From positions 61,777-125,776 of IMG/VR virus record IMGVR_UViG_3300032217_000845: a stretch of 64,000 bases of DNA; one strand, written 5' to 3'. Positions 21,643-42,017 of the stretch are shown piece after piece. A program made the position numbers and the translations under genes. The notes under the pieces are model-generated. The model saw only the letters and a list, made by a program, of their open reading frames with translations, had not been told where the DNA came from and did not search any database. Position 1 is the first letter of the stretch. Every line of letters starts with the position of its first letter. Source of the DNA: a virus.

Positions 21643-23028
21643 ATGGGTAAATCAATCATGGAGCAGCTTGCTCTTCTGTCACCGGAAGAGCAGGCTCTCG
21701 CTTTACAGGGTATGGACCCAGACCAACTCCTCTGGGACTGGTCTGTTTGGGGCCGCCCCGAGCAGCAAGCACCTGAAGGGGACTGGAACGTTTGGCTTGT
21801 ACTAGCGGGTCGTGGTTTTGGTAAGACAAGACTTGCATCCGAATGGGTGCGTGAACAGGCTCGATACACAACTACTGGCCAAAGACGTTTCGCACTTGTT
21901 GCTCGTACTGCTGGAGACGTTCGAGACGTTATTGTTGAAGGTGAGTCAGGCATTATGAATGTCACGCCGCCATCCGAGCGTCCACTATACGAGCCGTCCA
22001 AGCGACGCCTAACTTGGCCCAACGGAAACGTTGCCTCACTCTTTACTGCTGACGAACCAGACTCTCTCCGTGGACCTCAGTTCACTCACGCTTGGGGAGA
22101 TGAGATAGCTGCGTGGAGACAAACTCCAGATGCCGCAGGTATGACTGCCTTTGACAACCTTCGTGTTGGTACTCGTCTTGGTACTCGTCCAAAAATCTTA
22201 GTCACTACTACCCCGAAGCGTACTCCGCTTCTTTACAAACTTATTGAAGAATCCCGAACCGACCGAGTTGTTGTTACTAAGGGTTCTACCATGGACAACG
22301 CTGGAAACCTCTCTGGTGCTTATCTAGACACAATGCTTGGCGTTTACGAGGGAACAGCCCTTGCTCGTCAGGAGCTTTATGGTGAAATGCTTGAAGCTCT
22401 CGAAGGTGCCATGTGGACCGAAGAGTCCATCGAAGCTGGACGCCAGATGAACATGCCTCAATCAACTCCCCTACGATGTATCGGCGTTGACCCGTCTGTT
22501 GCTGAAAACCCACGTGACGAATGTGGAATTGTTGTTGTTGCCTCTACTTCAGAGCATGACCTGTACAAGCGTCAAGCCTGGGTTCTTGAAGATGCCAGCA
22601 TCCATGGCTCTCCAGATGTCTGGGCTAATCAAGTTGTGAAGATGGCTCGTAAATGGGGCTGCCCAGTTATCGCCGAAGTCAACCAGGGTGGTGCACTTGT
22701 AAGAAACGCCATCAATACAATTGACCCGACTGTCAAGGTTCTTGAAGTTCACTCTAAGCAGGGTAAGCAACTTCGTGCAGAGCCAATCACTATGGCGTAT
22801 CAGCAAGAACGTGTTCACCACGTTGGTCACGCACTTACCGACCTCGAGACACAAATGATTACTTGGATTCCAGGAGAGGGCAAATCTCCTGACCGCGTTG
22901 ATGCACTCGTTCACGCACTAACTGCGCTGCTCATCAAACCACCAGCAGGATTCTCTGGCGGAAAGATTCGTGCAAAGTCAATGGCTAACCGACGCATCGG
23001 TGGCAATGGCGGATTTAGGGTAAGATAA
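21643..23028 (+). CDS. terL: Terminase large subunit
   Basis: Walker A AGRGFGKT, LRGPQF, Walker B AWGDE, TTTP, nuclease GVDPS and SPDRVDALV. Confidence 0.95.
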   Translation: MGKSIMEQLALLSPEEQALALQGMDPDQLLWDWSVWGRPEQQAPEGDWNVWLVLAGRGFGKTRLASEWVREQARYTTTGQRRFALVARTAGDVRDVIVEGESGIMNVTPPSERPLYEPSKRRLTWPNGNVASLFTADEPDSLRGPQFTHAWGDEIAAWRQTPDAAGMTAFDNLRVGTRLGTRPKILVTTTPKRTPLLYKLIEESRTDRVVVTKGSTMDNAGNLSGAYLDTMLGVYEGTALARQELYGEMLEALEGAMWTEESIEAGRQMNMPQSTPLRCIGVDPSVAENPRDECGIVVVASTSEHDLYKRQAWVLEDASIHGSPDVWANQVVKMARKWGCPVIAEVNQGGALVRNAINTIDPTVKVLEVHSKQGKQLRAEPITMAYQQERVHHVGHALTDLETQMITWIPGEGKSPDRVDALVHALTALLIKPPAGFSGGKIRAKSMANRRIGGNGGFRVR

Positions 23029-23711: not shown

Positions 23712-25520
23712 TTGGGCATTTTCAAGCGTGAATCTGGTAAACAGACACGTCAACCAACTTCTAATGGAGTTCGCGCTACCAATCCTGGTGCACGCCCATT
23801 AAATCCAGCACCACTCTATAGAGACTCTTTTGGAGTTGTCTACCAGCAGCCACTACCTTTCAACGAGCCTCGACCTCTTACTGCAGCCGCTGCCCAAATC
23901 AAAATTGGTGACGTAGGAGAGGCTCAAGTCTTCAAATCTCGCCGTCAGTCGGCATCTTCTGCTTGGCAGAAGGAAGCTTGGGAGTATTACGACGCAATTG
24001 GTGAAATCAAGTACGCTTTTAACCTTGTTGCCTCTGTTGTCTCCCGTATTCGTCTTTACGCTGCCAGTATTGATGACCCAGCCGAGGCCCCTGTTACTGT
24101 ACGCAAGTCAGAGGTGGTAAGTCCAGAGCTTGCAGCCGCAGCAGAGCGTGCTCTTGACCGACTTAACAGTGCTTACGGAGGTCAGTCAGGTCTTTTGAAG
24201 GACACTGCCCTAAATCTTCAGGTTACTGGCGAATGCTACCTAGTTCAGGTTCCAGAGCGTATCGGAACTGGACTTCCAGAGTCATGGGACATTCGTAGCA
24301 CCGACGAACTTCAAGTTGACGCCAAGGGTAACTACATGATTAACCCTCGCCGTGAAGTTGGCAATGGTGGTGGCAGCGTAATGTCTGCAGGTAACGCAGA
24401 AGTCATCAGACTGCCTAAGACAGCCTTCATTGGTCGTATCTGGAAGTCGCACCCACGTTACTCACAGGAGGCTGATAGCTCGCTACGTGGCCTTCTAGAC
24501 CTATGTGCAGAACTACTACTCTTGAACCGCACATTCCGTGCAACGGCGCGTTCCCGTCTGAACGCTGGTGCCCTTTATCTTCCAGACGGTCTCTCTGTTG
24601 CAGCGTCTCCAGACCCTGACTACCCATACGACGAGAATGGTGTCTACAACGAGAAGTACAACCCTGAAGAGGCTGCCGACGACTTTGAAGACCAACTTAT
24701 TGATGCAATGCTTACTCCTATTAAGGATGAAGACTCTGCCTCAGCTGTAGTCCCACTTATCATTCGTGGTCCTGCAGAACTTGGTGATAAGATTAAGCAG
24801 TTCAAGTTTGAGCGCAGCTTTGACCCTGCTCTAGCAGAGCGCTCAGAGCGTGTCCTAGAACGCATCATGCAGGGACTAGACGTCCCTAAGGATATTGTTT
24901 CGGGTCTAGCTAACGTCAAGTATTCAAACGCTCTACAGATTGACGAGAGCCTCTACAAGGCACACATCGAGCCATTGATGTTGCTAATTGCAGATGCTGT
25001 AACAGTTGTCTACTTGCGCCCATACCTAATCTCGATTGGCTACTCCGAAGCTGAAGTTAGCCGTCTTGTTATTTGGTATGACCCAAGCCAGGTTGCTACT
25101 CGTAATGACCGTGCAGCAGACGCAGACGCTGGTTTTGATAAGCTTGCAGTTTCTTACGACAGTTGGAGACGTGCTCACGGATTCTCAGACCAGGATGCTC
25201 CAGATGCAACTGAGCTTGCCCTGCGTTTGATTATCAACAAGGGTGCTATCACTCCAGAACTTACTGAAGCTATGCTCGGTGCCGTTTCTCCAGACCTTAT
25301 GGAGAAGGTAAAGGGCGTTGCTCAGCAAAACTCGATTGCTCCTGTTCCGCCTGAGATTGAGCAGGCACTTAGTGGACAAGCACCAGGAGCTGCTCCTGAA
25401 GGAGCTCCAGCAACCGAAGCGGCTCCTCCTGGACTCGCTGAACCTGCACCAGCACAACCGACCGTAACAAACACCGAGGCTTCTCCACCCCCACCAGGGC
25501 TAGCCGAACCAAGCGCATAG
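23712..25520 (+). CDS. Portal protein
   Basis: About 600 aa, follows terL; WQKEAWEYYDAIGEIKYA N-terminal pattern of actinophage portals; Pro/Ala-rich tail. Confidence 0.85.
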   Translation: MGIFKRESGKQTRQPTSNGVRATNPGARPLNPAPLYRDSFGVVYQQPLPFNEPRPLTAAAAQIKIGDVGEAQVFKSRRQSASSAWQKEAWEYYDAIGEIKYAFNLVASVVSRIRLYAASIDDPAEAPVTVRKSEVVSPELAAAAERALDRLNSAYGGQSGLLKDTALNLQVTGECYLVQVPERIGTGLPESWDIRSTDELQVDAKGNYMINPRREVGNGGGSVMSAGNAEVIRLPKTAFIGRIWKSHPRYSQEADSSLRGLLDLCAELLLLNRTFRATARSRLNAGALYLPDGLSVAASPDPDYPYDENGVYNEKYNPEEAADDFEDQLIDAMLTPIKDEDSASAVVPLIIRGPAELGDKIKQFKFERSFDPALAERSERVLERIMQGLDVPKDIVSGLANVKYSNALQIDESLYKAHIEPLMLLIADAVTVVYLRPYLISIGYSEAEVSRLVIWYDPSQVATRNDRAADADAGFDKLAVSYDSWRRAHGFSDQDAPDATELALRLIINKGAITPELTEAMLGAVSPDLMEKVKGVAQQNSIAPVPPEIEQALSGQAPGAAPEGAPATEAAPPGLAEPAPAQPTVTNTEASPPPPGLAEPSA

Positions 25521-25531: not shown

Positions 25532-26023
25532 ATGGAGCACGACGCAATTTCTATTAATTTAACTTCTTCTAAAGGAAGTCCGGCACTAGCACAGGCACTG
25601 GCTAAGCTTCTTGGCTCGGTTGTTGTCTTCAAGTTCACAGCTCATGGCTTCCACTGGAACGTCAAGGGCAAGGACTTCCGCGAGTACCACGACTTCTTCG
25701 GGGCAATCTATGAAGACGTTGATGGCTCAATTGACCCAACAGCGGAGAACATTCTTAAGCTTGGCTACGATGCTCCATACATGCTAAGCGACTTTATTGA
25801 GCTATCATGCCTTGCTCCCCGAGAGCGTGTCACTACTGGCGACTGCCACCAGATGGCTCAAATTCTTGAGGCTGACAACGTTAAGTTGCTTCAGGAACTC
25901 GTTGGAGCTTTCGATATTGCTAATAGCTGCAACGAACAGGGAGTTGCAAACTTCCTTGCAGAGCGTATTGACATGCACCAAAAGTGGCAGTGGCAACTAC
26001 GAGCAACACTAAACATTCAGTAA
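25532..26023 (+). CDS. dps: Dps-family mini-ferritin
   Basis: HGFHWNVKG.DF.EYH.FF..IYE.....D..AE ferroxidase signature and C-terminal HQKWQWQL. Confidence 0.92.
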   Translation: MEHDAISINLTSSKGSPALAQALAKLLGSVVVFKFTAHGFHWNVKGKDFREYHDFFGAIYEDVDGSIDPTAENILKLGYDAPYMLSDFIELSCLAPRERVTTGDCHQMAQILEADNVKLLQELVGAFDIANSCNEQGVANFLAERIDMHQKWQWQLRATLNIQ

Positions 26024-26042: not shown

Positions 26043-26720
26043 ATGTCCGGATATCTGTCAGAAGTACTAACTGACGTCACTGCTACCACGGCTAGTGGCG
26101 GTACTGGTGTATCTGCACCCGTGCTGAAAGAGGGAGATATTCAGCCAGCAAAGAAGAGCCCCACTCTAAAGCCGAAGAAGGTTCAATTCTCTAAGGCAGT
26201 AGAATCTGCTCTAGCGCAGAAGTACAAAGAATGCAGCACTGTTCTAAACGACGGGTCTAAAACTCCACAGCTTGATGCGTTCCGTGTAGTGTACCGAAGA
26301 GGAGCTAGCTCGTACGACAACGCTGACACTGGAACACTTAGCCGCCACGACTGGGCTATGGCAAGAGTCAATGCTTTCAGTGCTCTAGTTCAGGACGCTG
26401 CACTTGTAAGCTCTGCTTACAGTTCCGATGATGACTTGCTCCCTCCAACGCACTCACGTTCTAACGGAGCAACGCAGAACTATTCTGCTGACCTAACTGT
26501 CTCGATTCTCCCTGAGGACGAGTACGAATCTCAGGAGCAGGCAATCTTTGCACTAGCAGAGTTGTCTGGTCTTGGCTATGAAACAATCCCCGCTATTCGT
26601 ACCGCATGGGTACGAGCAGCTAACAAAAATGAAAACCCATTTGAGCGTGCAGCAGTACTTGCTTCTGCTCTCTACGACAGCCCAGATGCTGACCTGCTCC
26701 CAAAGAAAGGTATTCTCTAA
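26043..26720 (+). CDS. Head-module hypothetical protein (VYRRGA...WAMARVNAF motif)
   Basis: Position between portal and protease; RBS AGGAAA. Confidence 0.75.
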   Translation: MSGYLSEVLTDVTATTASGGTGVSAPVLKEGDIQPAKKSPTLKPKKVQFSKAVESALAQKYKECSTVLNDGSKTPQLDAFRVVYRRGASSYDNADTGTLSRHDWAMARVNAFSALVQDAALVSSAYSSDDDLLPPTHSRSNGATQNYSADLTVSILPEDEYESQEQAIFALAELSGLGYETIPAIRTAWVRAANKNENPFERAAVLASALYDSPDADLLPKKGIL

Positions 26721-26722: not shown

Positions 26723-27868
26723 ATGAGCCAGACACCAGAAATTATTGAAACTAACGAAACGGTTGAAGAGTTGAAGCCAATCACTCGTCAGGAAGTCTCA
26801 GCGATGATTGCATCGGCTAACGAGTCAATCATTGACGATGTTCGTCAGGTACAGCCGAAGCTTGTGAACCAAGTTATCGAACGCACTTACCTAGATACTG
26901 AAGGTCTTCCAGTACGTTCACGTAACTTTGCGATTCGTCGTGCAGTTACCAACTACATTGACCTACAGACCAAGGGTCTAGTTGCTAGTGCTGCCCCTAA
27001 CCATACTGACCTACTAACCCCGGCTAACCCGTACTCAACTGCGGCTACAGTTTGGGACGAGGATACCCTACGTCAGAAGCGTGCCACATGGGCTGCAGCT
27101 GAGCCAGGCGTATCCGAAGAGCACCGTGCACTTATTGCTGCTGCTTACATGCAGAAGCCAGGTTCGGTAGAAGCTCTTCACGCCGAGGTTCGTCTAACTG
27201 CCCTTACTGCTGGTGGTGCAATCCCTGCTCAGGTTCTAAACTACGGACACGCACTTACAGCTGGTGCAGCTGTCAACACTGCCCCTACTAATGACGAAAT
27301 GTATGAGTACTACGAAGAGTCTCGCGCTGCGTTCCTAGAACTGCTAGATGCTCAGTCTGCTCTTACAGCGTCTGGCTCTGCTCCGTTTGACTGGAAGGGT
27401 GACCTTACTCGTCGCGTTTACCGTGGCGACACTCGTCACCAGATTCTTAGCCACCTAAGTCAAGACGAAGAGTTTGCTCAGAACGTACTACTGCTAAATG
27501 AAGACCTATCTGACACAGACATGTACACCCGTGCAGGTCAAGCTCAGTTCCAAGTTTTCTATGACGCACTCTGTGAACTTGCGGATGCTCCTCAGGTTAT
27601 TGACCTTCGTGAGCGTGCAGCTAAGGCTATCTCTAAGTATGACGAGACTGGCGAAATTGCTCAGGCAATTGTTGCTGGTGCTTCGACTAACCACGTCCTA
27701 AGCAAGCTTCACCAGCTTGAATCATGGAACCTTGACAACGACTATCTAAACGTTGATAGCGAGTCAGATAGGGCTGCAGAATTTGCAGTAATCTATGAGT
27801 CAGTTCTCGATATCGATGGTGAGTCATACGACTATGACTCACTCAGAGAAGTACTTCCAGAGAAATAA
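26723..27868 (+). CDS. Head-module hypothetical protein
   Basis: Long ORF with several ALTAG/ALTAS motifs. Confidence 0.75.
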   Translation: MSQTPEIIETNETVEELKPITRQEVSAMIASANESIIDDVRQVQPKLVNQVIERTYLDTEGLPVRSRNFAIRRAVTNYIDLQTKGLVASAAPNHTDLLTPANPYSTAATVWDEDTLRQKRATWAAAEPGVSEEHRALIAAAYMQKPGSVEALHAEVRLTALTAGGAIPAQVLNYGHALTAGAAVNTAPTNDEMYEYYEESRAAFLELLDAQSALTASGSAPFDWKGDLTRRVYRGDTRHQILSHLSQDEEFAQNVLLLNEDLSDTDMYTRAGQAQFQVFYDALCELADAPQVIDLRERAAKAISKYDETGEIAQAIVAGASTNHVLSKLHQLESWNLDNDYLNVDSESDRAAEFAVIYESVLDIDGESYDYDSLREVLPEK

Positions 27869-27958: not shown

Positions 27959-30900
27959 ATGTCTGATTACCTAGACAGCCTTTACTCTGGCTTAAACGAA
28001 GAAAGCCTTACAGCGATTACTGCTGGTATTGGATTTAATGATGGAGCCAACAAAGGTTTCTGGCGCAAGCAGCCTCGCAAGAAGTGGGGTAAGGGCAAGG
28101 GTCAATGGATTGAGATGGGTGCACGACTACGTGCCCTATTCAACATCAATGGTAAACTTCAAAGCGTTACTGGTCGCTCTGCTGGTTCTGATGGTACCCC
28201 TAACGGTGTTCGTTTCCGTCCAGACCCTGGACAGCCTGGTGTAGACAGCAACCTACTCTACGGTGTTAACACTGCTCACCTAGAAGAGATTCAAGCTACC
28301 CTTCCAGACAACTATGTTGAGAGCAAGGGTCTTAACGCCAACCGTGAGCAGACTGGAACTGGCAGCGTAGTTTCTACCGCCAACATTCCAGACATAAATG
28401 ATATGGAGACTGCTCCTGTAACTCCTGATGACATCAGAATGATTGAAGAGGGTGTCAACTCTAAAGAGGGTCAAGAAGCAGAGAACTTCAAGAACACTGA
28501 CGAAGGTCAGCAAGTTGCCAGCTTAGATGACGTAGATGAGTCTGATGTTCTCACTGGCGAAGAAGTCAACCAGCTAGTTGACGGAAACGCTCCACGTAAT
28601 CTGGCAGGTTATAAAGGTCTAAAAGAAACTTCTCCTGGAAGTGGAATTTGGGATTACAAAGAAGGTAAATATAACTACCGACTAAAGCAGAACAAAGCTG
28701 GACAATGGGAAATCTATGCTGATGGTGCTAACCCTGACTATGAATATGATACTCCTGCAGATAGACGTAACATGCGTTACATGTTTGAAAAACTTGATGC
28801 TGGAAGCTACAGCAGCGTGCAGGACGCCATGGATAATTTCTTTGGCGCAGAGTACACCTCGAAGAAGTCTAAGAAATCTAACGAGGACGTCACCGAGCCA
28901 ATCGCTGTCGTTACCAATCCAGAAGATGTAGCTGACCTCACCCTAGGTGAGACCCCTCTTATGGAAGCTGGTCTAGTCAAACATCCAGGAGAATATCCTG
29001 GCATAACAGAGTATTCAGACGGTGAAGGTGACCTAACCCCAGAAAATGCTACCTTCGGTCTCGAGAATCTAGGCGGAGGTAACTGGGAGTTTACTAACTA
29101 CAAGACTGGTCAAATCTTCCCGATAAAGGCTGACAATCTTGCAGATGCCGAAAGACAGCTGGCCGACTATCGTCTTGAAAGAGGCGATTTCGACCCAGCA
29201 GTTATTCAAGCCCGCAGTGATGAGGAAACAGCTAACGCTCGTGGATTCACTGAAACTATGCGTGGCAGCCTGCAAGGCATGAAGGGTCGCAATATCAAGG
29301 GTGGTTTTGCTAAGGCTTACCCTAACGGAAGAACTGCAACCATTGTACAAGACGATGATGGTTCCTGGCACCTAGAAAAGCATGACGAGTTTAATGGTGG
29401 AATCCAAGAAACAAAGCGTTTTGAAGATGGCTACTTTAGCTCTGGATTAGACCAGGCCCTTGCAGAAGGTGACGCTTATCTAAACGAAGACATTGCTTTA
29501 CCAATGACTCGTAAAGAGTTCGGTGATTACGTTGAGAATCGCTATGGCGATGCCGAGCGTAAAAAGCCGGCCTTCCTAGACGAAGCTGCCATAGACGAGG
29601 CTTTTCAAAGCTACTCTGACATGTATAAAGAGAGTAAGGCAGACAACGGCTGGGTATCTAAAGACATGGACGCAGATGCGCGTTCTCAGGCATTCTCCGA
29701 AATGGATGACATGGCAGTGGCCGAAGAGAGAGACCCTCTAGGCGACGGTGGTTTTGACCAGCTAGTCAAAGATGCCATAGATGGTAAAGATGTAAGTCTA
29801 GATGGGCTGCTCAATGAAAAAAGCAAAATGGATGACCAAGACGGGGACGGTACTCCAGACGATGAAGACCCTGACTTCGACCCTGACCTAGAAGATACAG
29901 ACCTAGAGCTTACTAGCGGTGACCAAGACCCTGAACTACTTAGGGATATTGTTCGCAAAGACCGCGATGAGGCAGAGAATGTCAACATTGGCGATGTAAT
30001 CATGGGCCCTGATGGTATGCCTGTTCGTGTTAAGAGATACGACTGGGACGAGTCTGACTCTGACGAAGAGTCTCCTGGATTGACCATTACTGCTACCGAT
30101 GCTAACGGTGAAGAAGTAGAGTTTTACAAGGGTCGCTACGACAGCGTTTACTACCCAGAGTTTGCACCAGAAGGTGCTGCTCCAAAGGCCAAGCCTGCTG
30201 ATAAGCCGATTACTCCAGCTGATGCCACTCCAGCAACTCCTACCAGAGTTGCACCAGATAGCGCACTAGAGGTTGATGCTGGTCGAGTTCAGATTGGCGA
30301 CAAGCTTTACAGTCCAGACGGTTCTACACTTCTTGGTGAAGTTACTCAGACTCGTAAGAAGGGCGGCAAGACTGAAGCCCGCCTGAGCCTAGATGGTAAG
30401 GACGAAGGCTTCCAAGAGCTTGGTCCAGTAAACCTAGTCGATAGAAACCCTAGCGTTAATGCTCAGAAGCAGGCAGAGAAAGACGCCAAGAAGGCTGAAG
30501 CAGCTCGTGTCAAGGCTGAGAAGAAAGCCGCTGACGAGAAGGCTGCAGCTGACAAGGCAGCAGCTATGAATGACCCACGCACAGACGAGGGTATCGAGAA
30601 CCTAAAGGGTATCCTTGAAGCTGCTAATAACCCAGAGCGTCTTCAGCCTGCAATCGATGTTCTAAATGACCCTAGCCTAAGCAACGACGAGAAGGCTACT
30701 GCTCTTGTAGACGCTTTGACTACGAAACTTGGAATGCTGAATGGTACAGATGAACAGCGTCTGAATGCTCGTAAGGCAGAGCAGAAGGCTATGAAGATGC
30801 TAGAGGATGCTGGCATCCCTGGCTCTAGCCGAGAAGAGCGTCAATCTTCTGCGGCTGTACGTCGCTCTAGAAGCAACATTCAAGGAGACAGCAACCTTAA

Positions 30901-32857
30901 ATTCCCTGAAAGTAACACTCTTGCTGCAGAAGTTGCTGACATGAAGAAGCGTCTAGACGCTGGAGAAGATGTTCCGCTTGCGGAAACTGACGCTTTGAAT
31001 GACAAAATTGCTGCTCACCGTGACCGTTTCTGGATGAAGGGCGACTCTAGCGGTAAGCCACTTCCAGGTGAGGCAGAGCGTGTTGATGAAGAGATTCGTA
31101 AGGCACAGCGTGAGGGTACTGCTCCAATCCCATTCGTAAGAAAAGATGGCTCGGAGATTCGTCCTGACGACAACACTGCTGGCACAGCTACTCCAGCTGC
31201 TCCTACAACTCCTGGAGCAACTTCAGCTCCTACAACTCCAGCAACTCCTACCCAGTACAAGACTCCTGCCCCAACTCCTAAGGCTCCAAAGCACCCTAAG
31301 CCTGTCAAGAAGAGCCCTAAGGCTAAGCCAATCGGCACTCCTGACGACGATGGTAAGCCTATCAAGGGTGACAACAAAACTGATGCAGATGTCGAAGCAA
31401 TGCGTAACAGAAAACTGGAAAACGCTATCGATGCAGATGGTAACCCAGTTTATGCCAAGGACGTTAATGGGAACATCCTAACTGACAAGAAGGGCCGTCC
31501 AATTCCTCTACAGGATACAGACGCTATTCTTGCTGCTCTACGTGCAGACTACCCAGACGCCAAGCTAGACAACTTCGGTAACATTGTTGTCCACCGCGAG
31601 AAGTACAAGGCTGATGACGGCTCAGAGAAGATGTTTGAAGTCCTTGTTCACATGAACACTGGTGGTAAAATTGGTCTGTCAATGCGATTTACCGACCCAG
31701 CTACTGGCGAGGTAGAACACCTAATCCACCACGATGAGCGTGACTCCTACATGGGTCTACACGGTAAGACAAACGGTATTCAAGCTCTTATCGATATCGT
31801 TCAGGGTAAGAAGCCTAACACCGACCGTAAGACTGCTACCCGTGGATACAACACCGCTGGACTAACTGACTACCGTCAGCGTGCAGAATACTTTGTTCGC
31901 CAAGGCCGTCTGCTTACGCAGGGTCAGGTATGGGACAAGTACCTTTCAGGTATGGCTGAAGAAATTAACACCAGCATGGGCGGTAAGGGTAAGGCATATC
32001 TAACAAAGCGTAGAAGTGAAGTTGCTTCTGCTGCCGAGGCTCTTCGCCAAGGAGATAGAGAAACCTTCTTCCAGCGTGTTCGTGCTGCTGTTGGTCACAC
32101 TCCTGTTCACCCTAGCCAGAGAGCGGAAATGCGTAAAGCAATCCGTGACTATCTAGAGCGTGAAATGCCTGCGATGTCAGCTAGAGAGCGTACAATTCTT
32201 GCTCAGTATGTTGACAGACACCTAACCCGCCGTGGCGAACTAGTAGACCCTACTGGTAGAGATGTTCCATTTGTTTCTCGCGAAACAAGAAAGCTCGAGC
32301 CAGGCCTTTGGGTTGACTACGTAAACAACTTCGGTGAGAAATCTCGTGGTCGAGTAGTTAGCCTAGACGAGCCTCAGCTAAACGATGCTGGAACTGAGTA
32401 CTATGACAACGTAACTATAGAGTTTGCTAACGGAGAGCGAGTCTCTATGCTTACTTCACAGAACATGATTCCAGTTCCTCCGAAAGAACAGGCTAAGGCT
32501 GCTCCATCTAAGTACATTAAGAATGTTCAGGGTGAAGAGATGCGTCGTCGTCGTAGGGAGCAGCTTGGAATTACCGCAGCTAGAACTACTGGTGTTCTAA
32601 GATTCCTAGAAGATGTTAAAGCAGAAGAAGCCGAAATGGCAGAAAACGCTAACAAGACTGGTGGCAAGATTGAAGACCTCGGTGCTGGAGATACTCTCTT
32701 CAGCAAGGATGGTGACCCTCTAGGTCCAATCATCGAGAAGATTCCTATTGTTGGTAAGAGTGGTAACCCAGGTTACGCTGTTATCTTTGAAAATGCCGAT
32801 GGTGAAGAAGTTCAGGTTCGTCTACCTCTAGGAGAGTTCCGCGGCCCAAAAGCGTAA
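27959..32857 (+). CDS. Giant (about 1630 aa) head-associated protein
   Basis: Start at MSDYL after AAGAAGGAA; N-terminal QPR...GQWIEMG; acidic and Pro/Thr linkers; ends at a slippery site. Confidence 0.85.
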   Translation: MSDYLDSLYSGLNEESLTAITAGIGFNDGANKGFWRKQPRKKWGKGKGQWIEMGARLRALFNINGKLQSVTGRSAGSDGTPNGVRFRPDPGQPGVDSNLLYGVNTAHLEEIQATLPDNYVESKGLNANREQTGTGSVVSTANIPDINDMETAPVTPDDIRMIEEGVNSKEGQEAENFKNTDEGQQVASLDDVDESDVLTGEEVNQLVDGNAPRNLAGYKGLKETSPGSGIWDYKEGKYNYRLKQNKAGQWEIYADGANPDYEYDTPADRRNMRYMFEKLDAGSYSSVQDAMDNFFGAEYTSKKSKKSNEDVTEPIAVVTNPEDVADLTLGETPLMEAGLVKHPGEYPGITEYSDGEGDLTPENATFGLENLGGGNWEFTNYKTGQIFPIKADNLADAERQLADYRLERGDFDPAVIQARSDEETANARGFTETMRGSLQGMKGRNIKGGFAKAYPNGRTATIVQDDDGSWHLEKHDEFNGGIQETKRFEDGYFSSGLDQALAEGDAYLNEDIALPMTRKEFGDYVENRYGDAERKKPAFLDEAAIDEAFQSYSDMYKESKADNGWVSKDMDADARSQAFSEMDDMAVAEERDPLGDGGFDQLVKDAIDGKDVSLDGLLNEKSKMDDQDGDGTPDDEDPDFDPDLEDTDLELTSGDQDPELLRDIVRKDRDEAENVNIGDVIMGPDGMPVRVKRYDWDESDSDEESPGLTITATDANGEEVEFYKGRYDSVYYPEFAPEGAAPKAKPADKPITPADATPATPTRVAPDSALEVDAGRVQIGDKLYSPDGSTLLGEVTQTRKKGGKTEARLSLDGKDEGFQELGPVNLVDRNPSVNAQKQAEKDAKKAEAARVKAEKKAADEKAAADKAAAMNDPRTDEGIENLKGILEAANNPERLQPAIDVLNDPSLSNDEKATALVDALTTKLGMLNGTDEQRLNARKAEQKAMKMLEDAGIPGSSREERQSSAAVRRSRSNIQGDSNLKFPESNTLAAEVADMKKRLDAGEDVPLAETDALNDKIAAHRDRFWMKGDSSGKPLPGEAERVDEEIRKAQREGTAPIPFVRKDGSEIRPDDNTAGTATPAAPTTPGATSAPTTPATPTQYKTPAPTPKAPKHPKPVKKSPKAKPIGTPDDDGKPIKGDNKTDADVEAMRNRKLENAIDADGNPVYAKDVNGNILTDKKGRPIPLQDTDAILAALRADYPDAKLDNFGNIVVHREKYKADDGSEKMFEVLVHMNTGGKIGLSMRFTDPATGEVEHLIHHDERDSYMGLHGKTNGIQALIDIVQGKKPNTDRKTATRGYNTAGLTDYRQRAEYFVRQGRLLTQGQVWDKYLSGMAEEINTSMGGKGKAYLTKRRSEVASAAEALRQGDRETFFQRVRAAVGHTPVHPSQRAEMRKAIRDYLEREMPAMSARERTILAQYVDRHLTRRGELVDPTGRDVPFVSRETRKLEPGLWVDYVNNFGEKSRGRVVSLDEPQLNDAGTEYYDNVTIEFANGERVSMLTSQNMIPVPPKEQAKAAPSKYIKNVQGEEMRRRRREQLGITAARTTGVLRFLEDVKAEEAEMAENANKTGGKIEDLGAGDTLFSKDGDPLGPIIEKIPIVGKSGNPGYAVIFENADGEEVQVRLPLGEFRGPKA

Positions 32858-32904
32858 AGGCTTCTGAGCCAACGTCTCGGGATGCCGAGGCATCCTCAGA
32901 GGCC
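32845..32904 (+). other. Predicted -1 programmed ribosomal frameshift signal
   Basis: In-frame C CCA AAA at 32845-51, 7-nt spacer, stem GGCTTCTGAG/CTCAGAGGCC; the -1 frame is open into the 32935 ORF. Confidence 0.8.
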
Positions 32905-32934
32905 ACTGGTCCGAATCTCAATGAGAAAAACGCT

Positions 32935-34377
32935 ATGTTTAGGGACTTTGACCTAGACGAAGGCGGTAACCCAGGGCAAATTAAGCTGGTATCCGAAGAG
33001 TCTGATTCAGACTTTGACGATGTTGAGGTAGACACTTCTTACTTGCGAAAAGCAGCCGCTTCGTCGCCTACTACTGATGCAGTAGATGAAGCCTTAGCTC
33101 CATTTGTAGATACTTATGGATTGGCGGCGGCTCCTTCAGACATTATGTCGCTTAGCCAGGCTGCTGATACTGTTAACAAGGCTGCAGCAGAACTACGTGC
33201 TAACCCAAGCGCAGAGACCAATAAAAAGTATAAAGAATCTCTACAAGCCTTCCTAAATCACAGAGCTTATATGATTCAGCGTGCTCACGAAGAATTTATT
33301 ATCCCTGGCGACATGAAGAAAGACTGGGAGCTCCCAGCTGACAGTCTTCTCTCGGTTTCAGAGCTAAAACTTATAAATGCTGCTATCAAACCATCTAAGT
33401 TATATGGTGCCGGAATCGGTGGCGGACGAGTACAGAAGTTCTCTCCTAAGGTAAATCGTAAGAACGCACCGAACTGGGCAGCCACTCTAGAGACAGCCAG
33501 AGAGATGGACCAAACCAACAAGAATAACCCAATCAAGGACTTAGCTCCAAACTGGGAAGTTCAGTCGTTTGAAGATAAGCTAGTTGCTGGAGAGAGCGAT
33601 TTGCTTGATGCAAATGGTGCACCTATGGCTGGACTAAGGACTGGAGTATCGGTTCACATCGTCAAGCTACTAAGCCGAGCTAGTGTTCTGCAAGAAGTAC
33701 GAGACTTTATGACTGTTGGCACCATGCAGCTTAAAGATTCTTCTGGAGTTTATGCTGGAAAACTTACTATCAACAGCGGTCTTACTAAGGGCAAACGATA
33801 CGCTACCGATGAAGAAATTAATGCCGCACTTGCTAGCATTATGGATGCTGGTGGGAAGCTACACCTCCCGGGTACAGCAGGCTCTGTTGCTGCTGGTGAT
33901 ATCCTAAAAGACAATGGTATGGATATATTTATAACATCGTCCGGTAGAGAGCTAACTTCAATCACTTCTATGCATGGCACCGAGCGTAACGCACTTGCTT
34001 ATGCAACTCCTTTGTTTGGAATTACAGTGTTTGCTGATAGAGTTAGAGACTCTCAGGCAAGTACTGATAAGGGCAGAGGGCAGCTAGATGGTTCCCCAAT
34101 GGACTGGTGGTCTTCTAAGATTAACCCGAATACCTTGGAGACATGGGACCACACTATGAAGCACGAAATTGGCCACATAGTTGATGCCAGAAGTAGCACC
34201 CTAAGCAATGATAATAGCTTTGGCTCCATCGGTTCTCCTAGCCAATATGGTAGAAAGAACTCGAAGGAGAAATTTGCTGAGCTATTCGCCAAGTACATGC
34301 GAGGCGAGCCAGTGTCAGACACATTTATGGCTATCCTTAGAAATAAGGGGCTATTGAAGTCCCAGCAGAGCAACTGA
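32935..34377 (+). CDS. HExxH zinc-metallopeptidase-domain protein (probably the frameshifted extension of the 27959 protein)
   Basis: MKHEIGHIVD...SQYG..N..EKFAELF; no clear RBS of its own. Confidence 0.8.
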   Translation: MFRDFDLDEGGNPGQIKLVSEESDSDFDDVEVDTSYLRKAAASSPTTDAVDEALAPFVDTYGLAAAPSDIMSLSQAADTVNKAAAELRANPSAETNKKYKESLQAFLNHRAYMIQRAHEEFIIPGDMKKDWELPADSLLSVSELKLINAAIKPSKLYGAGIGGGRVQKFSPKVNRKNAPNWAATLETAREMDQTNKNNPIKDLAPNWEVQSFEDKLVAGESDLLDANGAPMAGLRTGVSVHIVKLLSRASVLQEVRDFMTVGTMQLKDSSGVYAGKLTINSGLTKGKRYATDEEINAALASIMDAGGKLHLPGTAGSVAAGDILKDNGMDIFITSSGRELTSITSMHGTERNALAYATPLFGITVFADRVRDSQASTDKGRGQLDGSPMDWWSSKINPNTLETWDHTMKHEIGHIVDARSSTLSNDNSFGSIGSPSQYGRKNSKEKFAELFAKYMRGEPVSDTFMAILRNKGLLKSQQSN

Positions 34378-34389
34378 TAGGATTAGACA

Positions 34390-34614
34390 ATGAGTAAATA
34401 TCCGCAGCCACCTTTTGACACTAAAGATGTTCTAATCGTTGACACTGTCAACCCAGAAGACTCTTACGAGAGTGTTGTAGATTTAAACGATTTCTCTAAC
34501 GAGAAGTTATCTGAGCTGTACTTCGTTCATCCAGTAGCCAAAAAATTGCTAGACTGGCGATACGAGAACAAGGTCGGCTTTGATGAAGACGAGAACCAAG
34601 ACCAAAAGGACTAA
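34390..34614 (+). CDS. Small acidic hypothetical protein
   Basis: RBS AGGA; directly after the peptidase domain. Confidence 0.7.
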   Translation: MSKYPQPPFDTKDVLIVDTVNPEDSYESVVDLNDFSNEKLSELYFVHPVAKKLLDWRYENKVGFDEDENQDQKD

Positions 34615-34671
34615 GTATGCTAAACTTTATTCTAGAGCATACGTCGTCCGACGCTAAATTAAAGGAAAATA

Positions 34672-35031
34672 ATGGCTAATTACGCTATCGATATGTATGT
34701 ATACGTTGACCCGGATACACGAGAAGTAAAGGGTATGTACCTGTACGGCGGTCTGGGAGCTCTAACTCGCCTAGACGGAGACTGGGAGCCAGTCAACCGC
34801 GAGACTGACCCAAACATGGAAGACTTTGAAAGCGGCTATGTTGCTTACTCAATCGACTTTGAAAAAGGTGGAGATGAAATTCTTCTTGACGAGGAAGACG
34901 ATGAGTTTGAATACGTCCACCCACTAGTCAAGGCATTTGATGAAGGTGAAATCACTGAAGACATGGTCAAGCAGTACGGTGACCTAGCTCACGACGAAAC
35001 TGGACATAATCCAGAACTAGGTCTCAACTAA
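34672..35031 (+). CDS. Acidic hypothetical protein
   Basis: RBS AAGGA. Confidence 0.75.
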   Translation: MANYAIDMYVYVDPDTREVKGMYLYGGLGALTRLDGDWEPVNRETDPNMEDFESGYVAYSIDFEKGGDEILLDEEDDEFEYVHPLVKAFDEGEITEDMVKQYGDLAHDETGHNPELGLN

Positions 35032-35047
35032 TAACTAAAGGCTAAAA

Positions 35048-38000
35048 ATGGTAAATTTCGTTGGTCGCAGTGGCGAACTAGCTTTATTCAGCAATGGTTC
35101 GGATGCTGCTGTAGTTAACACCTCCCTCAACTTAGTTGTGGGTGTCGGTGAATACTCTGTGCTATCTGCCACGCGCGAATGGCAGAGTACCGACGAAGTC
35201 ATTTCTAGTTCGGTCATAGAACTTGCAGCTGGTGCCGTTACTACTCTCGACATCAAAGTTATAACTGCTGCCGCTGGACGTATGTATACAATTCCAGACG
35301 GTGCAAAAGGAGAAGCTAAAAAAGCCCTTGAATGGCATAAAGAGCATCATCGCGGCGGAACTCCTGTAGGTCTAAATACTGCTCGTACTCTTGCTAAGGG
35401 CGGCCAGATTGGTATTGAAAAGGTACGTCACATAGCTAAGTACTTTGCCCGTCACGAAGTAGATAAAAAAGGCAAGGGCTACAAGCCTGGCCAAGACAAC
35501 TTCCCGAGCAACGGACGAATCGCGTGGGCCTTGTGGGGCGGTGACACCGCTTGGCGTTGGGCTAAGGCAATCGTTGAGCGTGAGAACAAGAAAGCTCTTA
35601 CTGCTGGCGGTTATGCACTTCCTGGATATCACGACAGCGTAGAAACTTATAGAACAGCAGATGCTTATGACTCAAGCATGGATGCTTTCAAGATGGCTCA
35701 CGAACTTGAGCCAGAGTATGGTCCAGAGTTTATGGCTCGTGTTCGTATGGATGGTTCGGGTATTGACCGACTATATAAAGTTGACCACGATGGCACCGTC
35801 TGCGTTTGGGATGGCAAAGGCTGGGACGACTTAGGCCACGTTGAGGGCGACATATGGAGCTACGACCGTGCTCTAGATGACCCATATGACCACTGTGAAA
35901 AAGACCACTTTATAATTGACCCGGAGTCAGCAGTTGCTATCTCTGGGCACATGCAGGAGAATCCATTTAATAGAGTATCTCTTGAAGACATAGATGCTTA
36001 TGAGGCTAACCTCATGGCAGATGGTATTCCTGACGAAGACTGGCAAATGGTTGACTATGCGTTGACAGCTGCTGGCGACTCTATGTCTGGTGCCAAGGGC
36101 GCAAAGCCTACTGGTGCAGTTAAGGCTGGCGATGGTCAGTACACTGCAGCAGAACGTTCTAACATTGCTACCTCTGCTCCTCGTGATGCTACTGGTAAGT
36201 TTGCTAAGTCTGGTGGTCGTGCTGTAGTTGGAAACAATCCAGCAACTGGTGCTGGAACTATTGTTGGACGAAGCAAGACTCCTGGAAACATTATGTTCAA
36301 AAAGGATAGCGATGGACAGACCATTGACGTTCCTGCTAAGTACAGTACCCCTGAAGATAAGTTCCAAGCTCCGACCCCTCCTACTGGCGTAGATTATGGT
36401 AAGCCACTAGACACTTCTGGGATTTTAGGCGAGCCACGTACTCCAAATGATATGCCTGGAGCCCAACTTAAAGGCACTCTCCCTCCAATGACTCAGCAAG
36501 ATATGAAGAGCCTACTTAATGACTGGCCTTCATATGTTCAAAAGCAGCGTGCGTCCTTCACTCCTACTAATGAGGCAGATGCTCGTAAGTATGCTCAGGA
36601 AACTAAGCAGAAAGTTCGTGAAGTACCGACAGTAACTCGTACCCCTATTACTACTTTTAAAGATGGAAAGTTAGTTCAACAAAATAGAGTTACAAAACAG
36701 TCAAGTCCGTCAGCTGTTGATAAGTTCTTACCTAACCCAGTTAAACCTGGTGTACCTAAATCTCTACAAGTACCTAAGAGACCAGCAGTGGCTAAGCCAA
36801 CTGGTCAGCCTGGTGCATGGTCTACTGCAGTTAAAAAGGCTCCGTCTCCATACAAGCCGATTGGAAATAACAAAACTGCAGAGAACGCTAGAAAAGGTCT
36901 TCTTATGGGCCCGCTTTCTGGTCGTGGACCAGTTACTAAAAGTTCAAGTAGTGCTGGACCTGCTCCTCAAGGGAATTTTGTCCGTGGTCAAAGTCGTATG
37001 GATGGTAGACCAGGCTCTACAGTAAACCCTAAAGGTCAGCCTGGGGCATGGGACACTGGCAAGAATGGTACAGGTAGACCTGGTATTAAGTCTGCTGACC
37101 CTCGTAATGCTCCTGGCTCAAACAGGCAGACAACGCCAGCATCTAAGTCTCAGTTTGATGACAAGGGTCGTTACGTAGTTCAAAAGGGAGATAACCTATG
37201 GTCTATCTCCGACAAAAACAAACCTAAGGGTCAAACTACAGCTCAGTACTGGAACAAGGTTCTTGATGCAAACAAGGGCAAGTTCAAGTCAGGCAACCCT
37301 AGTCTCATCTATTCTGGTGAGCGTGTAACTCTGCCGGGCGTAGGTAAGCCTATGAGCCCAGCCGAGAAACGTAATGCAGACGCTAAAGCTTACGGCCAGG
37401 GCATTATGCAAGGTATTGCCAAGGATAAAGCTCAAAAAGCTGCAAAGCAAAATTCAGATGCCAAGCAGTATGGTCAAGGTATCCTTGCTGGAAAGGCTAA
37501 AGCCAAGGCTGAGGCTGACAAGCGTAATGCAGACGCCAAGGCATACGGTCAGGGCAGAATAGCCGGAAACGCTAAGGCAAAAGCCGCGGCAGATGCAAAG
37601 CGTAATGCAGACGCCAAAGAAATTGGCACAGCTAAATTGAAGGCTGCTGCAAAGGTCAAAGCTGCAAGCGATAAGCGCAATGCTGATGCTAAAGCATACG
37701 GACAGGGTATCAAGTCAGGTATTGCTCAGAAGCGCAACGCTGATGCCAAAGCTTATGGGCAAGGTATCTTGTCTGGTAAAGCTAAGGCTCAGGCTCAAGC
37801 GGATAAGCGTAATGCCGATGCTAAAGCTTATGGTAAAGGCATTATGTCTGGACAGGCTAAGGCAAAAGCAGCAGCGGATGCTAAGCGTAATTCAGATGCT
37901 AAAGCTTATGGACAGGGTATCAAGTCTGGTATTGACAAAGCTAAGGCAGATGCTGCAAAGCGTAATGCTGACGCTAAAGCATTTGGTGAAGGCAAGAAAG

Positions 38001-38848: not shown

Positions 38849-38906
38849 ATAGCACTAACCAGTCCAAAGTATACTAATACTAGTGAATTTTAAAGAAGGT
38901 ACTCAG

Positions 38907-41900
38907 ATGGCAGAAGCACCAGCGGTCGCCCCTAAAGCACAGGGCGCACCCGAGGTTACCCCAGCCACATCGGATGTTCCGCCACTATACATGGCTATTG
39001 TGTCTCCTGATGACCCGGCTGCAGTTATGCAAGTTGTTGCTCTTACCCCCGAGAACGCTGAGTCCACAAACCCTATGACATTTAAGCGTGTTGAAGGTCA
39101 GTGGGTTAAAGATGAGCAAATTCTTCGTGACCTAAAGTCTGCCACTCCACCACCTGTAGTTCCTCTTGATGCAACTGTTCTTGATGGTGTGTTACAACAG
39201 GTTGATAAGGCTAGCCCAGCTGTTACTGCTTCTGGCTTAATTGCTGTCTTCCGCCTCACCGACCTAGATGAGATTCTAGAAAAAGAAGACGAGCAAGAAA
39301 CTTCTTATGTTGATGCACTTGTAGCTTCAGTTTTTGCTGGAGTTGAAGAGTATGCTTCTGATGAAGAAGACTACTTTGCTCTACTTTCCACTGAAGAATA
39401 TGCCATGCTTGAAGCAGAAGGTCTTCTAGAGGAATTTTCTATTCAAGCAGCTGGCGGTCTAGACCGTAACCGTGGTAATGCCGAAGAACTACGTCGTTAC
39501 TGGACTAAGGGTAAGGGTGCTGCAAAGATTCGCTGGGGTACCCCTGGCGACTGGACCCGTTGTGTCCGTCATTTATCTAAGTACATGGGTACTCGTGCAA
39601 AGGGCTATTGCCAGCTTCGTCACAAGGATGCTCTAGGTTTCTATACAGCTACCCACGCAAAAAATGACCGTGCTCACGACTTTGCTGCGGATGAGTCATT
39701 TGAAGCAGCAGTTATTGAGCAAGCTTTCCTAACTGCTCAAGCTAATGTTGCTCGCTCACGTATGTCTTTGACAGCAGCAGCCACTACCGCTGAGCCTATG
39801 TATGGTGCAGAGTTTTCTATCCCTCTAGTTCTTCCAGAAGACCACGAGTCGGGAGATGGACGTAAGTTTAAGACAGAATCAGTAGAGATTAGAGAACTGC
39901 CTCTACCTCTTCTATGGCAGTACAAAACTGGCGAAGGCCATTCAGGTTCAGTAGTCGTAGGCCGTATCGACTACATGGAGAGAATTGAAGGCGGAATTGG
40001 AAATGCACGTGGTGTATTTGACAATGGCCCTCACGGTAAAGAAGCCGAGCGTTTAGTTCGTAACGGATTTCTCCGTGGCGTATCTGCAGACCTCGACCAG
40101 TTTGAAGCAAAAGAATCAAAAGCGGAAGGTTCCGCAGATGAGCTTGGCGACGAACTTGGAAAGAACAAAATTACCATAAATCACGCCCGTGTTATGGCTG
40201 TTACAATTGTACCCAAGCCCGCTTTTCAAGAGTGTTTAATCATGCTTGTAAAAGACGAGGAGCAGGAGGATGACATGATTCCTAAAGATGGAATTTACGA
40301 AGAATCGGTTGATGCGCAAGAGCCAGGAGCATCGTTAGTTGCATCTGGCTTCCTTAGTGCACCAATCCCGACTGTACCACCGACCGATTGGTTTGCTGAC
40401 CCGTCTCTAAGCAAGCCAACCCCACTGACTATTACTGAAGATGGCCGCATCTACGGTCACGTTGCTGCATGGCATGTAAACCACATAGGTCTGCCAAATA
40501 ATACTAAGCCACCTCGCTCTCGTAGCAACTATGCCTACTTCCACACTGGCGTTGTACGTACCGATGCTGGTAAAGATGTTCCAGTTGGTCAGCTAACTCT
40601 TGCTGGTGGACATGCATCTCTACATGCCAGTGCATCCCAGGCAGCTAAGCACTACGATGACACAGCTTCTGCTATTGCAGACGTCCACGCGGGTGAGGAC
40701 CGCCACGGTATTTGGGTAGCTGGCTCTCTACGTCCAGAGGCAACTGAATCACAGATTCGTGCACTTCGTGCCTCTGCTCCTTCAGGTGACTGGCGTCCAG
40801 TCGGTGGCTCACTTGAGCTTGTTGCTGTATGTCAGGTAAACGTTCCTGGCTTCCCAATTGCTCGTGCTCTTGTTGCATCTGGTTCTGTTATGGCTCTTGT
40901 AGCTGCTGGTGCATATGAAATGGCTATGATGCGTTTCGATGCAGCAAGCAAGCTAACTGCTAAAGCTGATGCACTTGGTGCTCTAAGCTCTAGCGTTGAA
41001 GACCTAAACATTCGTGAGCGAATCTCGACTAAGAAGATTGACTCCGAGTTTGGATACGTATCTCGTGACGAGCGTCAAAAGCTTGCTTCCGAGGGCAAAG
41101 CACTTCCAGACGGCTCTTATCCAGTAAGCAATGTAGATGACTTAAAAAATGCTATTCAAGCATATGGACGTTCTAAAGAAGCTGACCGTGCCAAGGTTCG
41201 TCGTCACATAATTAAGCGTGCAAACGCTCTCAAGGTTCGTCACATGATTCCAGAAGACTGGAAGACTGCTTCTTCAAGTGAAGCTTATTCAGCTCTATCT
41301 AACATGCGTTCAAAGATTGAATCCCTTACTGCTGCTATACCCGCTCCAGTTGAGATTAGCGATACCGACTTAAAAAAACTTGAAGACGCCAAGATTGCTG
41401 CTGACTTAGAACGTGAACAAGTACAGGCAGAAATCAAAGCTCGTAAAGACGGTTCAGTTCTTCCAAACAATGCCCTACCTAAATTTGACCAGGAAACTGG
41501 ACTAACTAAGTTTATCCCTGGTAAGACTCAGCCTCGTGATGCTGCTGGTAAGTTCCGTAAGGTTCTTGCTCGTCTAAAGCAGGACCTAGGTGTTGCTGGT
41601 CTACAGGAAGCTTTGAAGCAAGTAGAGAAGACCGAGAACTTAGAGTTTGCTGGAAACTATACTCAGGCCGCGGCTTCTGCTCAAGACCTGCTTGGAACTA
41701 TTGACCGCCTCGACTCAGGTGCTCTAGATGCAACTAAATTGGAGAATGTTCGCCTTACCGCGAAAGACCTTGGAAAAGTAATTTCTAACCTACCGTTGCC
41801 ATTTACTAACCAAGCACAAAAAGTTAGATTTTCCGACCTTCCGCCTGCACTAAAGAATCTTGTCGATGACATGATTACTCGTGTAGAAGGGAAGATTGGT

Positions 41901-42017
41901 AAAAAGGACGCAGATGTTGCAACCGCAAAACTGCGTTCCTACAAGTCCGGAGCCGACGTTTTCTCTCAGTCTGAGATTTCATCTGAGATGGCTACGTTGC
42001 TCCGACTCCTTACCTAA
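38907..42017 (+). CDS. Capsid maturation protease (multidomain fusion)
   Basis: ESGDGR...LPLPLLWQ...GH.GS.VVGRID and GVSADLD...AVTIVPKPAF prohead-protease-like core; directly precedes the capsid gene. Confidence 0.8.
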   Translation: MAEAPAVAPKAQGAPEVTPATSDVPPLYMAIVSPDDPAAVMQVVALTPENAESTNPMTFKRVEGQWVKDEQILRDLKSATPPPVVPLDATVLDGVLQQVDKASPAVTASGLIAVFRLTDLDEILEKEDEQETSYVDALVASVFAGVEEYASDEEDYFALLSTEEYAMLEAEGLLEEFSIQAAGGLDRNRGNAEELRRYWTKGKGAAKIRWGTPGDWTRCVRHLSKYMGTRAKGYCQLRHKDALGFYTATHAKNDRAHDFAADESFEAAVIEQAFLTAQANVARSRMSLTAAATTAEPMYGAEFSIPLVLPEDHESGDGRKFKTESVEIRELPLPLLWQYKTGEGHSGSVVVGRIDYMERIEGGIGNARGVFDNGPHGKEAERLVRNGFLRGVSADLDQFEAKESKAEGSADELGDELGKNKITINHARVMAVTIVPKPAFQECLIMLVKDEEQEDDMIPKDGIYEESVDAQEPGASLVASGFLSAPIPTVPPTDWFADPSLSKPTPLTITEDGRIYGHVAAWHVNHIGLPNNTKPPRSRSNYAYFHTGVVRTDAGKDVPVGQLTLAGGHASLHASASQAAKHYDDTASAIADVHAGEDRHGIWVAGSLRPEATESQIRALRASAPSGDWRPVGGSLELVAVCQVNVPGFPIARALVASGSVMALVAAGAYEMAMMRFDAASKLTAKADALGALSSSVEDLNIRERISTKKIDSEFGYVSRDERQKLASEGKALPDGSYPVSNVDDLKNAIQAYGRSKEADRAKVRRHIIKRANALKVRHMIPEDWKTASSSEAYSALSNMRSKIESLTAAIPAPVEISDTDLKKLEDAKIAADLEREQVQAEIKARKDGSVLPNNALPKFDQETGLTKFIPGKTQPRDAAGKFRKVLARLKQDLGVAGLQEALKQVEKTENLEFAGNYTQAAASAQDLLGTIDRLDSGALDATKLENVRLTAKDLGKVISNLPLPFTNQAQKVRFSDLPPALKNLVDDMITRVEGKIGKKDADVATAKLRSYKSGADVFSQSEISSEMATLLRLLT

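Follow-up and report, generated by a model that had tools for sequence, protein, structure and literature searches.

Introduction

Programmed -1 ribosomal frameshifting is described for Escherichia coli dnaX (tau/gamma), the lambda tail chaperone (G/GT) and retroviral Gag-Pol in passages of PMC5009743, and large phage proteins with exchangeable enzymatic domains are treated as polyvalent or MuF-linked proteins in passages of PMC5512222 and PMC5576092. Here we compare with these systems the 3' end of a giant gene in a stretch of viral DNA of 64,000 nucleotides (nt), positions 61,777 to 125,776 of the IMG/VR record IMGVR_UViG_3300032217_000845. This whole stretch, the second half of the 125.8-kb record (93% complete), is called the window below. 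The gene encodes a protein of 1,632 amino acids (aa), here the giant protein, and ends in a putative -1 frameshift signal that would add a metallopeptidase with an HExxH motif.

According to the passages of PMC5009743, dnaX has, like the window, an upstream Shine-Dalgarno (SD)-like element, a heptamer of the type X XXY YYZ with lysine in the A site and a simple 3' stem-loop, and there are dnaX variants in which the shift gives the longer product and the 0-frame stop directly follows the site. The two differ in the heptamer, A AAA AAG in dnaX versus C CCA AAA in the window, and in the outcome, since in the window the shift adds 508 residues with an enzyme, in a phage gene without an assigned function. 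The G/GT system of lambda and other long-tailed phages resembles the window in that a late gene has, close to its end, a low-level -1 slip that determines how much short and how much extended product is made (PMC5009743, same passages), but it belongs to another gene family, with about 110 aa versus 1,632 aa and a tail-tube adaptor versus an enzyme as extension. In Gag-Pol, as described there, an enzyme needed in smaller amounts (here also a peptidase) is fused on as well, and co-packaging follows from the shared N-terminal part; in contrast, the window belongs to a bacterial double-stranded DNA phage, shows no homology to it, and packaging is only proposed.

Polyvalent and MuF-linked proteins are, in the passages of PMC5512222 and PMC5576092, large proteins encoded in the neighborhood of virion genes with exchangeable enzymatic domains, often zincin metallopeptidases, as is the giant protein. 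They are proposed there to be packaged and injected, and their toxin genes are often followed by a short open reading frame (ORF). Unlike in the window, their domains are fused in frame, and no MuF domain was detected in the giant protein (see below). The word "frameshift" does not occur in PMC5512222 and PMC5576092. In the relevant passage, the PRFect paper (PMC10885494) only raises the possibility that a frameshift joins pairs of MuF-like and ADP-ribosyltransferase genes. PMC3483164 was rejected as a precedent, as CCCAAAA is found there only in a table of ribosome-binding sites, and full-text literature searches retrieved no paper in which enzymes are added by a frameshift to a giant phage protein of the head region. 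The slip mechanism is textbook, while its use for exchangeable enzymes on a giant phage protein was not found in the papers searched.

Results and Discussion

The probable -1 frameshift signal at the end of the giant gene

The comparison of sequences argues for a conserved dnaX-type programmed -1 frameshift at the end of the giant gene, which would add a peptidase tail to its product; we give this reading a probability of about 85%. The features involved are as follows (window coordinates; L004, L006 and L013/L015 are related loci compared below).

27959-32857, + strand: giant gene in the 0 frame (1,632 aa, 178.9 kDa, isoelectric point (pI) 4.8)
32830-32834, + strand: SD-like AGGAG, a possible 5' stimulator located 10 nt upstream of the heptamer
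32845-32851, + strand: slippery heptamer C CCA AAA in the 0 frame, same in L004, L006 and L013/L015
32855-32857, + strand: 0-frame stop TAA one codon past the heptamer (TAG in relatives; position kept in 13 of 13 homologs)
32859-32904, + strand: 3' stem-loop of 46 nt (10-bp outer stem, internal loop, 7-bp hairpin, 4-nt loop)
32851-34377, + strand: predicted -1 extension, 508 codons and stop (acidic linker, conserved SEESDSDFDDVEVDTSYLRKAAASSPTT segment, helical region, peptidase domain)
32935-32937, + strand: ATG of the -1 frame, possible independent start, 28 codons past the slip site
32935-34377, + strand: HExxH ORF, 480 aa
33472-34374, + strand: predicted zincin peptidase domain, residues 180-480 of the 480-aa ORF (lethal-factor/Pro-Pro-endopeptidase-like fold)
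34162-34176, + strand: zinc-binding motif HEIGH (with Tyr438 at 34246 and Glu445 at 34267)

The 0 frame of the giant gene ends with GAG TTC CGC GGC CCA AAA GCG TAA, and a spacer of 7 nt (32852-32858) separates the heptamer from the stem-loop, whose inner hairpin contains CTCGG-GATG-CCGAG. The folding energy of the stem-loop is -29.3 kcal/mol (z -5.5), and none of 200 shuffles was as good. An open -1 frame extends from 32806 to 34377, the first ATG, GTG or TTG in it being ATG 32935. The predicted products are the protein of 1,632 aa and a fusion of 1,631 + 508 = 2,139 aa. In dnaX the SD element also has a spacing of 10 nt. Rfam gave no match.

An earlier reading of the letters alone (the sequence-only reading) had named the in-frame heptamer before the stop, the 7-nt spacer and the stem-loop, each of which was verified in the sequence, and a -1 frame open through 34377, which was found as well; its product estimates of about 1630 and 2140 aa come close to the values given above. 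It had also stated that the downstream ORF lacks a good ribosome-binding site (RBS). The single candidate before ATG 32935, GAGAAAA, is indeed weak, but a few other genes of the window are equally weak in this respect.

Conservation of the signal in related loci

DNA at the junction was compared in four loci, the window, L004, L006 and L013/L015, the last of which was found by a motif scan. The C-terminal part of the giant protein has 13 homologs with 34-100% identity, all of which end in ...PKA-stop (EFRGPKA in eleven, EVRSPKA and EVRGPKA in one each). At the nucleotide level, TCCGCGGCCCAAAAGC, the position of the stop and the first bases of the stem are kept in all four loci, and the stem-loop begins 7 nt past the heptamer in each of them.

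In L004, where the peptidase is 82% identical, the 106 nt around the site are identical to the window except for the change of TAA to TAG, and the stem-loop is the same; behind it lies an insert of about 333 nt, at whose flanks the linker peptide A-T-x-P-N-L-D-E-K-N-A-M-F is repeated. L006 is more distant (52% identity of the peptidase, 67% of the C-terminal part of the giant protein) and keeps the heptamer and the stop one codon later, followed at the same spacing by a stem-loop of different sequence (-16.5 kcal/mol, z -2.6). The giant protein of L013/L015 has 1,424 aa, with 61% identity to the window in the N-terminal 344 residues and 26% in the C-terminal 543 residues. The cassette is identical between the window and L015 at 63 of 75 nt (84%), while identity is 54% in the upstream and 47% in the downstream flank, and the stem-loop of L013 has the same architecture as that of the window (-26.9 kcal/mol, z -4.3). 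The only additions from further scans for relatives were L009, a truncated contig, and a metagenome-assembled genome of Chthoniobacterales with a distant HExxH core (L011).

These data bear on the alternative that there is no frameshift and that the peptidase is a separate gene starting at ATG 32935, perhaps by reinitiation, the heptamer and hairpin being incidental or serving mRNA stability. This is improbable in our estimate. It would agree with the presence of that ATG 28 codons past the slip site, with the start of 12 of the 19 called peptidase homologs at such a Met, with the splitting of the two ORFs by gene callers and with the equally weak RBS of some other genes in the window. However, the -1 frame of L006 has no ATG, GTG or TTG for 62 codons, and the conserved SDPDFDD...LRKAAASSPTT lies upstream of its first start. 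Similarly, the -1 frame of L015 (L015 6562-9858; G001:C1:44000-53918) comprises 1,096 codons and has its first start codon 80 codons in, within a small domain that is internal in the homolog P0006. As both loci lack a canonical start codon over 62 and 80 codons, respectively, independent initiation cannot account for the conserved downstream sequence in these two loci of the four. P0016 as called also begins inside the conserved segment, and in the window itself the peptide encoded upstream of ATG 32935 has its homologous counterpart in the interior of the long forms. The cassette forms an island of conservation, which also argues against a separate gene. The stem-loop 32859-32904 also has no U-run after it, and no terminator or terminator-like site was found on the + strand within 32000-35200; nor was a promoter found there. 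The claim of the sequence-only reading that a -1 frameshift joins the peptidase to the giant protein thus gains support from the conserved cassette and from the relatives without a start codon for the downstream coding sequence, as well as from the confident peptidase fold described below.

The frame break could also be explained with a sequencing or assembly indel or with a pseudogene, the true gene being one continuous ORF; the source is, after all, a metagenome-assembled contig. We regard this as extremely unlikely. Two independent metagenome assemblies, from studies other than the probable source, cover the junction: a 256-nt contig of run X3 corresponds to 32772-33024 and a contig of run X2 to 32773-32937, with no differences and no indel. 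The position of the stop is, moreover, common to four diverged loci and to all 13 protein homologs, and an in-frame fused long form was found in none of 8,000 longer candidates, which is weak evidence. As far as assemblies can show, the refuting observation named in the sequence-only reading, an indel, is contradicted by these contigs and loci. A 151-nt contig (X4) matches only 32831-32904, with unlike flanks, and fits the L013 lineage. The only overlap of the RNA run X11 with the region, 32500-32568, is not informative on expression.

Several observations weigh against the proposed frameshift. In the four-sequence alignment of the stem-loop 82.4% of the cells are paired versus 35-46% in slid controls. 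Covariation is nevertheless not established: pairs with a change on both sides number just two, a result equaled by 93 of 500 shuffles, and L006 has to be aligned in another register. At its 3' end the giant gene shows no more than a modest rise in the conservation of synonymous sites. GGAGA is unchanged in all four loci, but the Gly-Glu encoded there is kept in 13 of 13 homologs of the giant protein, so that a role of AGGAG is inseparable from coding constraint. Finally, because 12 of the 19 called peptidase homologs start at a Met in the linker, independent initiation is possible in most genomes, this one included.

Chance expectation and other heptamers

Heptamers of the type X XXY YYZ occur in frame at 42 of 13,598 codon positions, which corresponds to a chance of about 5% in the 16-codon overlap. 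Across the genome, such a heptamer falls within the last 20 codons of 10 out of 204 + strand ORFs. In three of these ten, each with a CCCAAAN heptamer, the -1 frame that is entered exceeds 100 codons. Apart from the giant gene, one of them belongs to the tail-assembly-chaperone gene of the same phage, which provided a positive control for such signals from within the same genome, the tape measure gene having been identified by a PHROG/Pfam scan.

49049-49097, + strand: canonical tail-assembly-chaperone -1 site immediately before the tape measure gene, with C CCA AAU, a 5-nt spacer and stem-loop 49061-49097

The ORFs at this site are 48735-49073 and 49121-49453; the stem-loop folds with -23.5 kcal/mol (z -2.2), and the -1 frame is open for 134 codons. 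A near-identical GGAGAG...GGCCCAAAAGCGTAG was found at the tail-chaperone site of the high-GC phage L007/L012 (IMGVR_UViG_3300048793_000048; L007 2494-2523, - strand). It has the same SD-like element, spacing, heptamer and stop position as the cassette of the giant gene, and seven bases agree beyond the search pattern.

The third candidate, C CCA AAG at 26699-26705, is in frame and 21 nt away from the stop that closes a 225-aa ORF, and the following ORF (381 aa, 26723-27868) is in the -1 frame. It was rejected: no stem-loop is present and L015 has CCCTAAG at this place, while the 225- and 381-aa genes are kept in L015 with 53% and 46% identity. This heptamer is probably due to chance.

The predicted peptidase domain

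The peptidase ORF has 19 homologs, including that of the window itself, with 50-100% identity. An AlphaFold2 model based on an alignment of 33 sequences gave, for residues 180-480, a predicted local distance difference test score (pLDDT) of 93.4 and a predicted template modeling score of 0.91; an earlier model based on 19 close sequences had a pLDDT of 40 and was unusable. The model matched the catalytic domain of anthrax lethal factor (Z 11.0-11.7 over 185-204 residues) as well as the Pro-Pro endopeptidases PPEP-1/2/3 and Zmp1 (Z 10.4-11.3). For PPEP-1, Z was 11.3 with a root mean square deviation of 3.4 over 159 residues and 18-20% identity, and the next unrelated structural family, YbeY, reached Z 8.5. 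Foldseek E-values were about 0.01.

Eleven residues are unchanged in all 33 aligned sequences (H410, E411, H414, S436, Y438, G439, E445, F447, A448, E449, Y454). Tyr438 and Glu445 belong to the invariant block S-x-Y-G...E-x-F-A-E. A Tyr seven residues before the Glu of E-x-F-A-E corresponds to the active site layout of lethal factor, the roles of the residues being assigned by analogy. The fold match together with the invariant HExxH, Tyr and Glu makes it probable that the appended domain is an active zincin peptidase of lethal-factor/PPEP-like fold, in line with the HExxH metallopeptidase named from the sequence beforehand.

What the window peptidase has in common with lethal factor domain IV and PPEP-1/Zmp1 is the fold; it differs from them by an extra N-terminal subdomain and about 180 further residues, its sequence similarity stays below Pfam thresholds, and nothing ties it to animal toxicity. 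Indeed, the score of Pfam ATLF (PF07737), 16.1-16.7 bits, is under the cut-off of 27.4 and counts against the assignment. Peptidase_Mx1 and M57 are further sub-threshold Pfam matches around HEIGH, and a profile search of PDB sequences with the peptidase gave no match. More distant relatives of the core exceed the ATLF cut-off, for example P0045 with 109 bits.

A profile search of 1.84 billion representatives identified 40 proteins at E <=0.001, in several of which, long proteins, the core is C-terminal. Partner domains in the 27 proteins scanned against Pfam include RNase T, ArdC-N with MPTase-PolyVal, GNAT, ADP-ribosyltransferase and ATLF. These architectures are relevant to a reading in which the frameshift is real and the peptidase is a processing enzyme for the giant protein or neighboring head proteins, acting before packaging or after ejection. 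In a passage of PMC5512222, Iyer et al. propose a processing role of this kind for metallopeptidase domains in polyvalent proteins, P1 DdrB being an example. It would also fit the C-terminal position of the HExxH core in long proteins of distant relatives with RNase T, ArdC-N, GNAT or ADP-ribosyltransferase, and the presence of Pro-Pro endopeptidases among the closest folds, as a Pro/Thr-rich linker of the giant protein (residues 1069-1128) contains 16 Pro in 60 residues. On the other hand, no cleavage site or processed form is known and the substrate is not readable from the fold. We consider a processing role a serious possibility, though one that we would not favor.

Variable modules behind the site

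Eleven of the 19 peptidase homologs contain unrelated inserts between two copies of the linker, in which no Pfam domain scored above threshold. In the homologs P0003-P0018, the insert modules have about 100-300 residues and lie between the linker copies (...PNLDEKNAMFRDFD / MESDPDFD...). As unrelated inserts lie between repeated linker copies, their arrangement suggests that the modules are swapped as cassettes by recombination at the linker repeats. In L015 the extension consists of a small domain, an RNase T-like exonuclease (PF00929, E 5e-11), an ESDPDFDD linker and a region with a different HExxH (HEFWH); the window-type peptidase was not found in G001, the genome to which L015 belongs. 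The L015-type exonuclease occurs together with the window-type peptidase in P0025 and P0026. Modules seen behind the cassette are thus a lethal-factor-like peptidase, an RNase T-like exonuclease, a second HExxH domain and small inserts. The variable domains behind a conserved slip site for which the sequence-only reading had proposed to search are present, both as the other cargo of L015 and as the inserts of the 11 homologs.

Tentatively, and with more doubt than confidence, the last ~45 residues of the giant protein together with the SD-like element, heptamer and stem-loop may be seen as a portable docking cassette for enzyme modules that are swapped by recombination at the linker repeats. 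The slip rate would set the share of giant proteins in the capsid that carry an enzyme, amounting to a Gag-Pol-like dosing and packaging of injected cargo in double-stranded DNA phages, and the cassette would be common to tail-chaperone genes of other actinobacterial phages.

The giant protein and the proposed mechanism

The giant gene starts with ATG 27959, preceded by GAAGGA; this start is confirmed by the N-terminus MSDY(L/M)D, with which all 12 full-length homologs open. Scans of the giant protein, whole and in four pieces, found no Pfam, PHROG or NCBIfam family, and an ESM Atlas search gave no match. The sequence-only reading had likened it to head-associated proteins of the MuF type, but no MuF domain was detected in it by Pfam, PHROG or NCBIfam, though a very divergent copy could escape. 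The gene lies between the portal gene and the protease and major capsid genes and adjoins the gene of a LysM/lysin-like protein of 1,266 aa. The giant protein shares with polyvalent proteins its place among packaging and head genes and the presence of enzymatic modules varying between relatives.

From this position and by analogy with polyvalent and MuF-linked proteins, we infer that the giant protein may be a virion-internal carrier which takes cargo into the capsid, and which perhaps delivers it onward into the host. The proposals of the sequence-only reading that the enzyme is a dose-limited effector delivered at infection, and that the acidic ORFs at 34390 and 34672 could be an inhibitor or immunity partner, did not gain support; what was observed for the two ORFs is their conservation in L004 and L006 and their low pI.

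The steps of the slip are deduced from the canonical signal, its conservation and sequence comparison, and the product is a predicted fusion. Most ribosomes on the giant gene would terminate at TAA 32855, giving the 1,632-aa protein. A fraction would pause at the stem-loop with CCA in the P site and AAA in the A site, re-pair on CCC AAA and read 508 more codons, giving the 2,139-aa protein. As in Gag-Pol, the slip would keep enzyme-bearing giant proteins few relative to plain ones, and ATG 32935 may also give some free peptidase.

Programmed frameshifts in tailed phages are sought by annotators almost only in tail-chaperone genes, and a conserved second site would change annotation; the peptidase and its relatives are now called as N-terminally truncated orphan genes. 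If the proposed frameshift is true, it offers a way for a phage to pack a small defined dose of enzyme tied to an abundant carrier protein, and ...GE-x-R-G-P-K-A-stop plus hairpin would be a simple handle to find candidate injected effectors in uncultured freshwater phages.

Gene neighborhood, source and host

All long ORFs of the window are on the + strand. Besides the giant and peptidase ORFs, the neighborhood comprises the following genes, identified with Pfam and PHROGs.

21643-23028, + strand: large terminase
23712-25520, + strand: portal
25532-26023, + strand: Dps/ferritin-like protein (PF00210, E 1.7e-13)
26043-26720 and 26723-27868, + strand: two proteins without an assigned identity, 225 and 381 aa
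34390-34614, + strand: acidic ORF, 74 aa, pI 4.27, kept in L004 and L006
34672-35031, + strand: acidic ORF, 119 aa, pI 4.05, kept in L004 and L006
35048-38848, + strand: LysM/lysin-like protein, 1,266 aa, with two LysM domains and an endolysin-like segment (phrog_380)
38883-42017, + strand: protease/scaffold-like protein
42047-44128, + strand: major head protein
44205 onward, + strand: tail genes, with the tape measure gene at 49473-53300

The portal of the window has 69.8% identity with its counterpart in the Actinomycetia phage DSL-LC01 and 57-64% with the portals of large Microbacterium phages; because of this resemblance the host is probably an actinobacterium. The phage is uncultured, and the sequencing runs that contain the junction are labeled as freshwater or lake metagenomes. 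Among deposited phages, neither the DNA of the region nor the giant or peptidase protein had a match, and a 35-nt cassette query had none either. The giant proteins of DSL-LC01 (3,289 aa) and of the Microbacterium phage Pumpernickel (2,235 aa) have at most an N-terminal motif in common with that of the window (E 6e-6), and the slip site is absent at their ends.

Some further features of the window may be mentioned. The position of the Dps/ferritin-like gene immediately after the portal gene is unusual for such a gene. The 1,266-aa LysM protein of the head module is a candidate for an ejected protein active on the cell wall. At 693 aa the major head protein is unusually long, and its N-terminal part includes a Pro-rich, extensin-like segment at residues 135-179. 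Finally, between 16001 and 18000 the AT skew is strongly negative (-0.35) and GC is lower (0.40), and no ORF of at least 100 aa is found between 15363 and 18582; the stretch 16001-18000 marks the border between an early block of small genes and the late genes.

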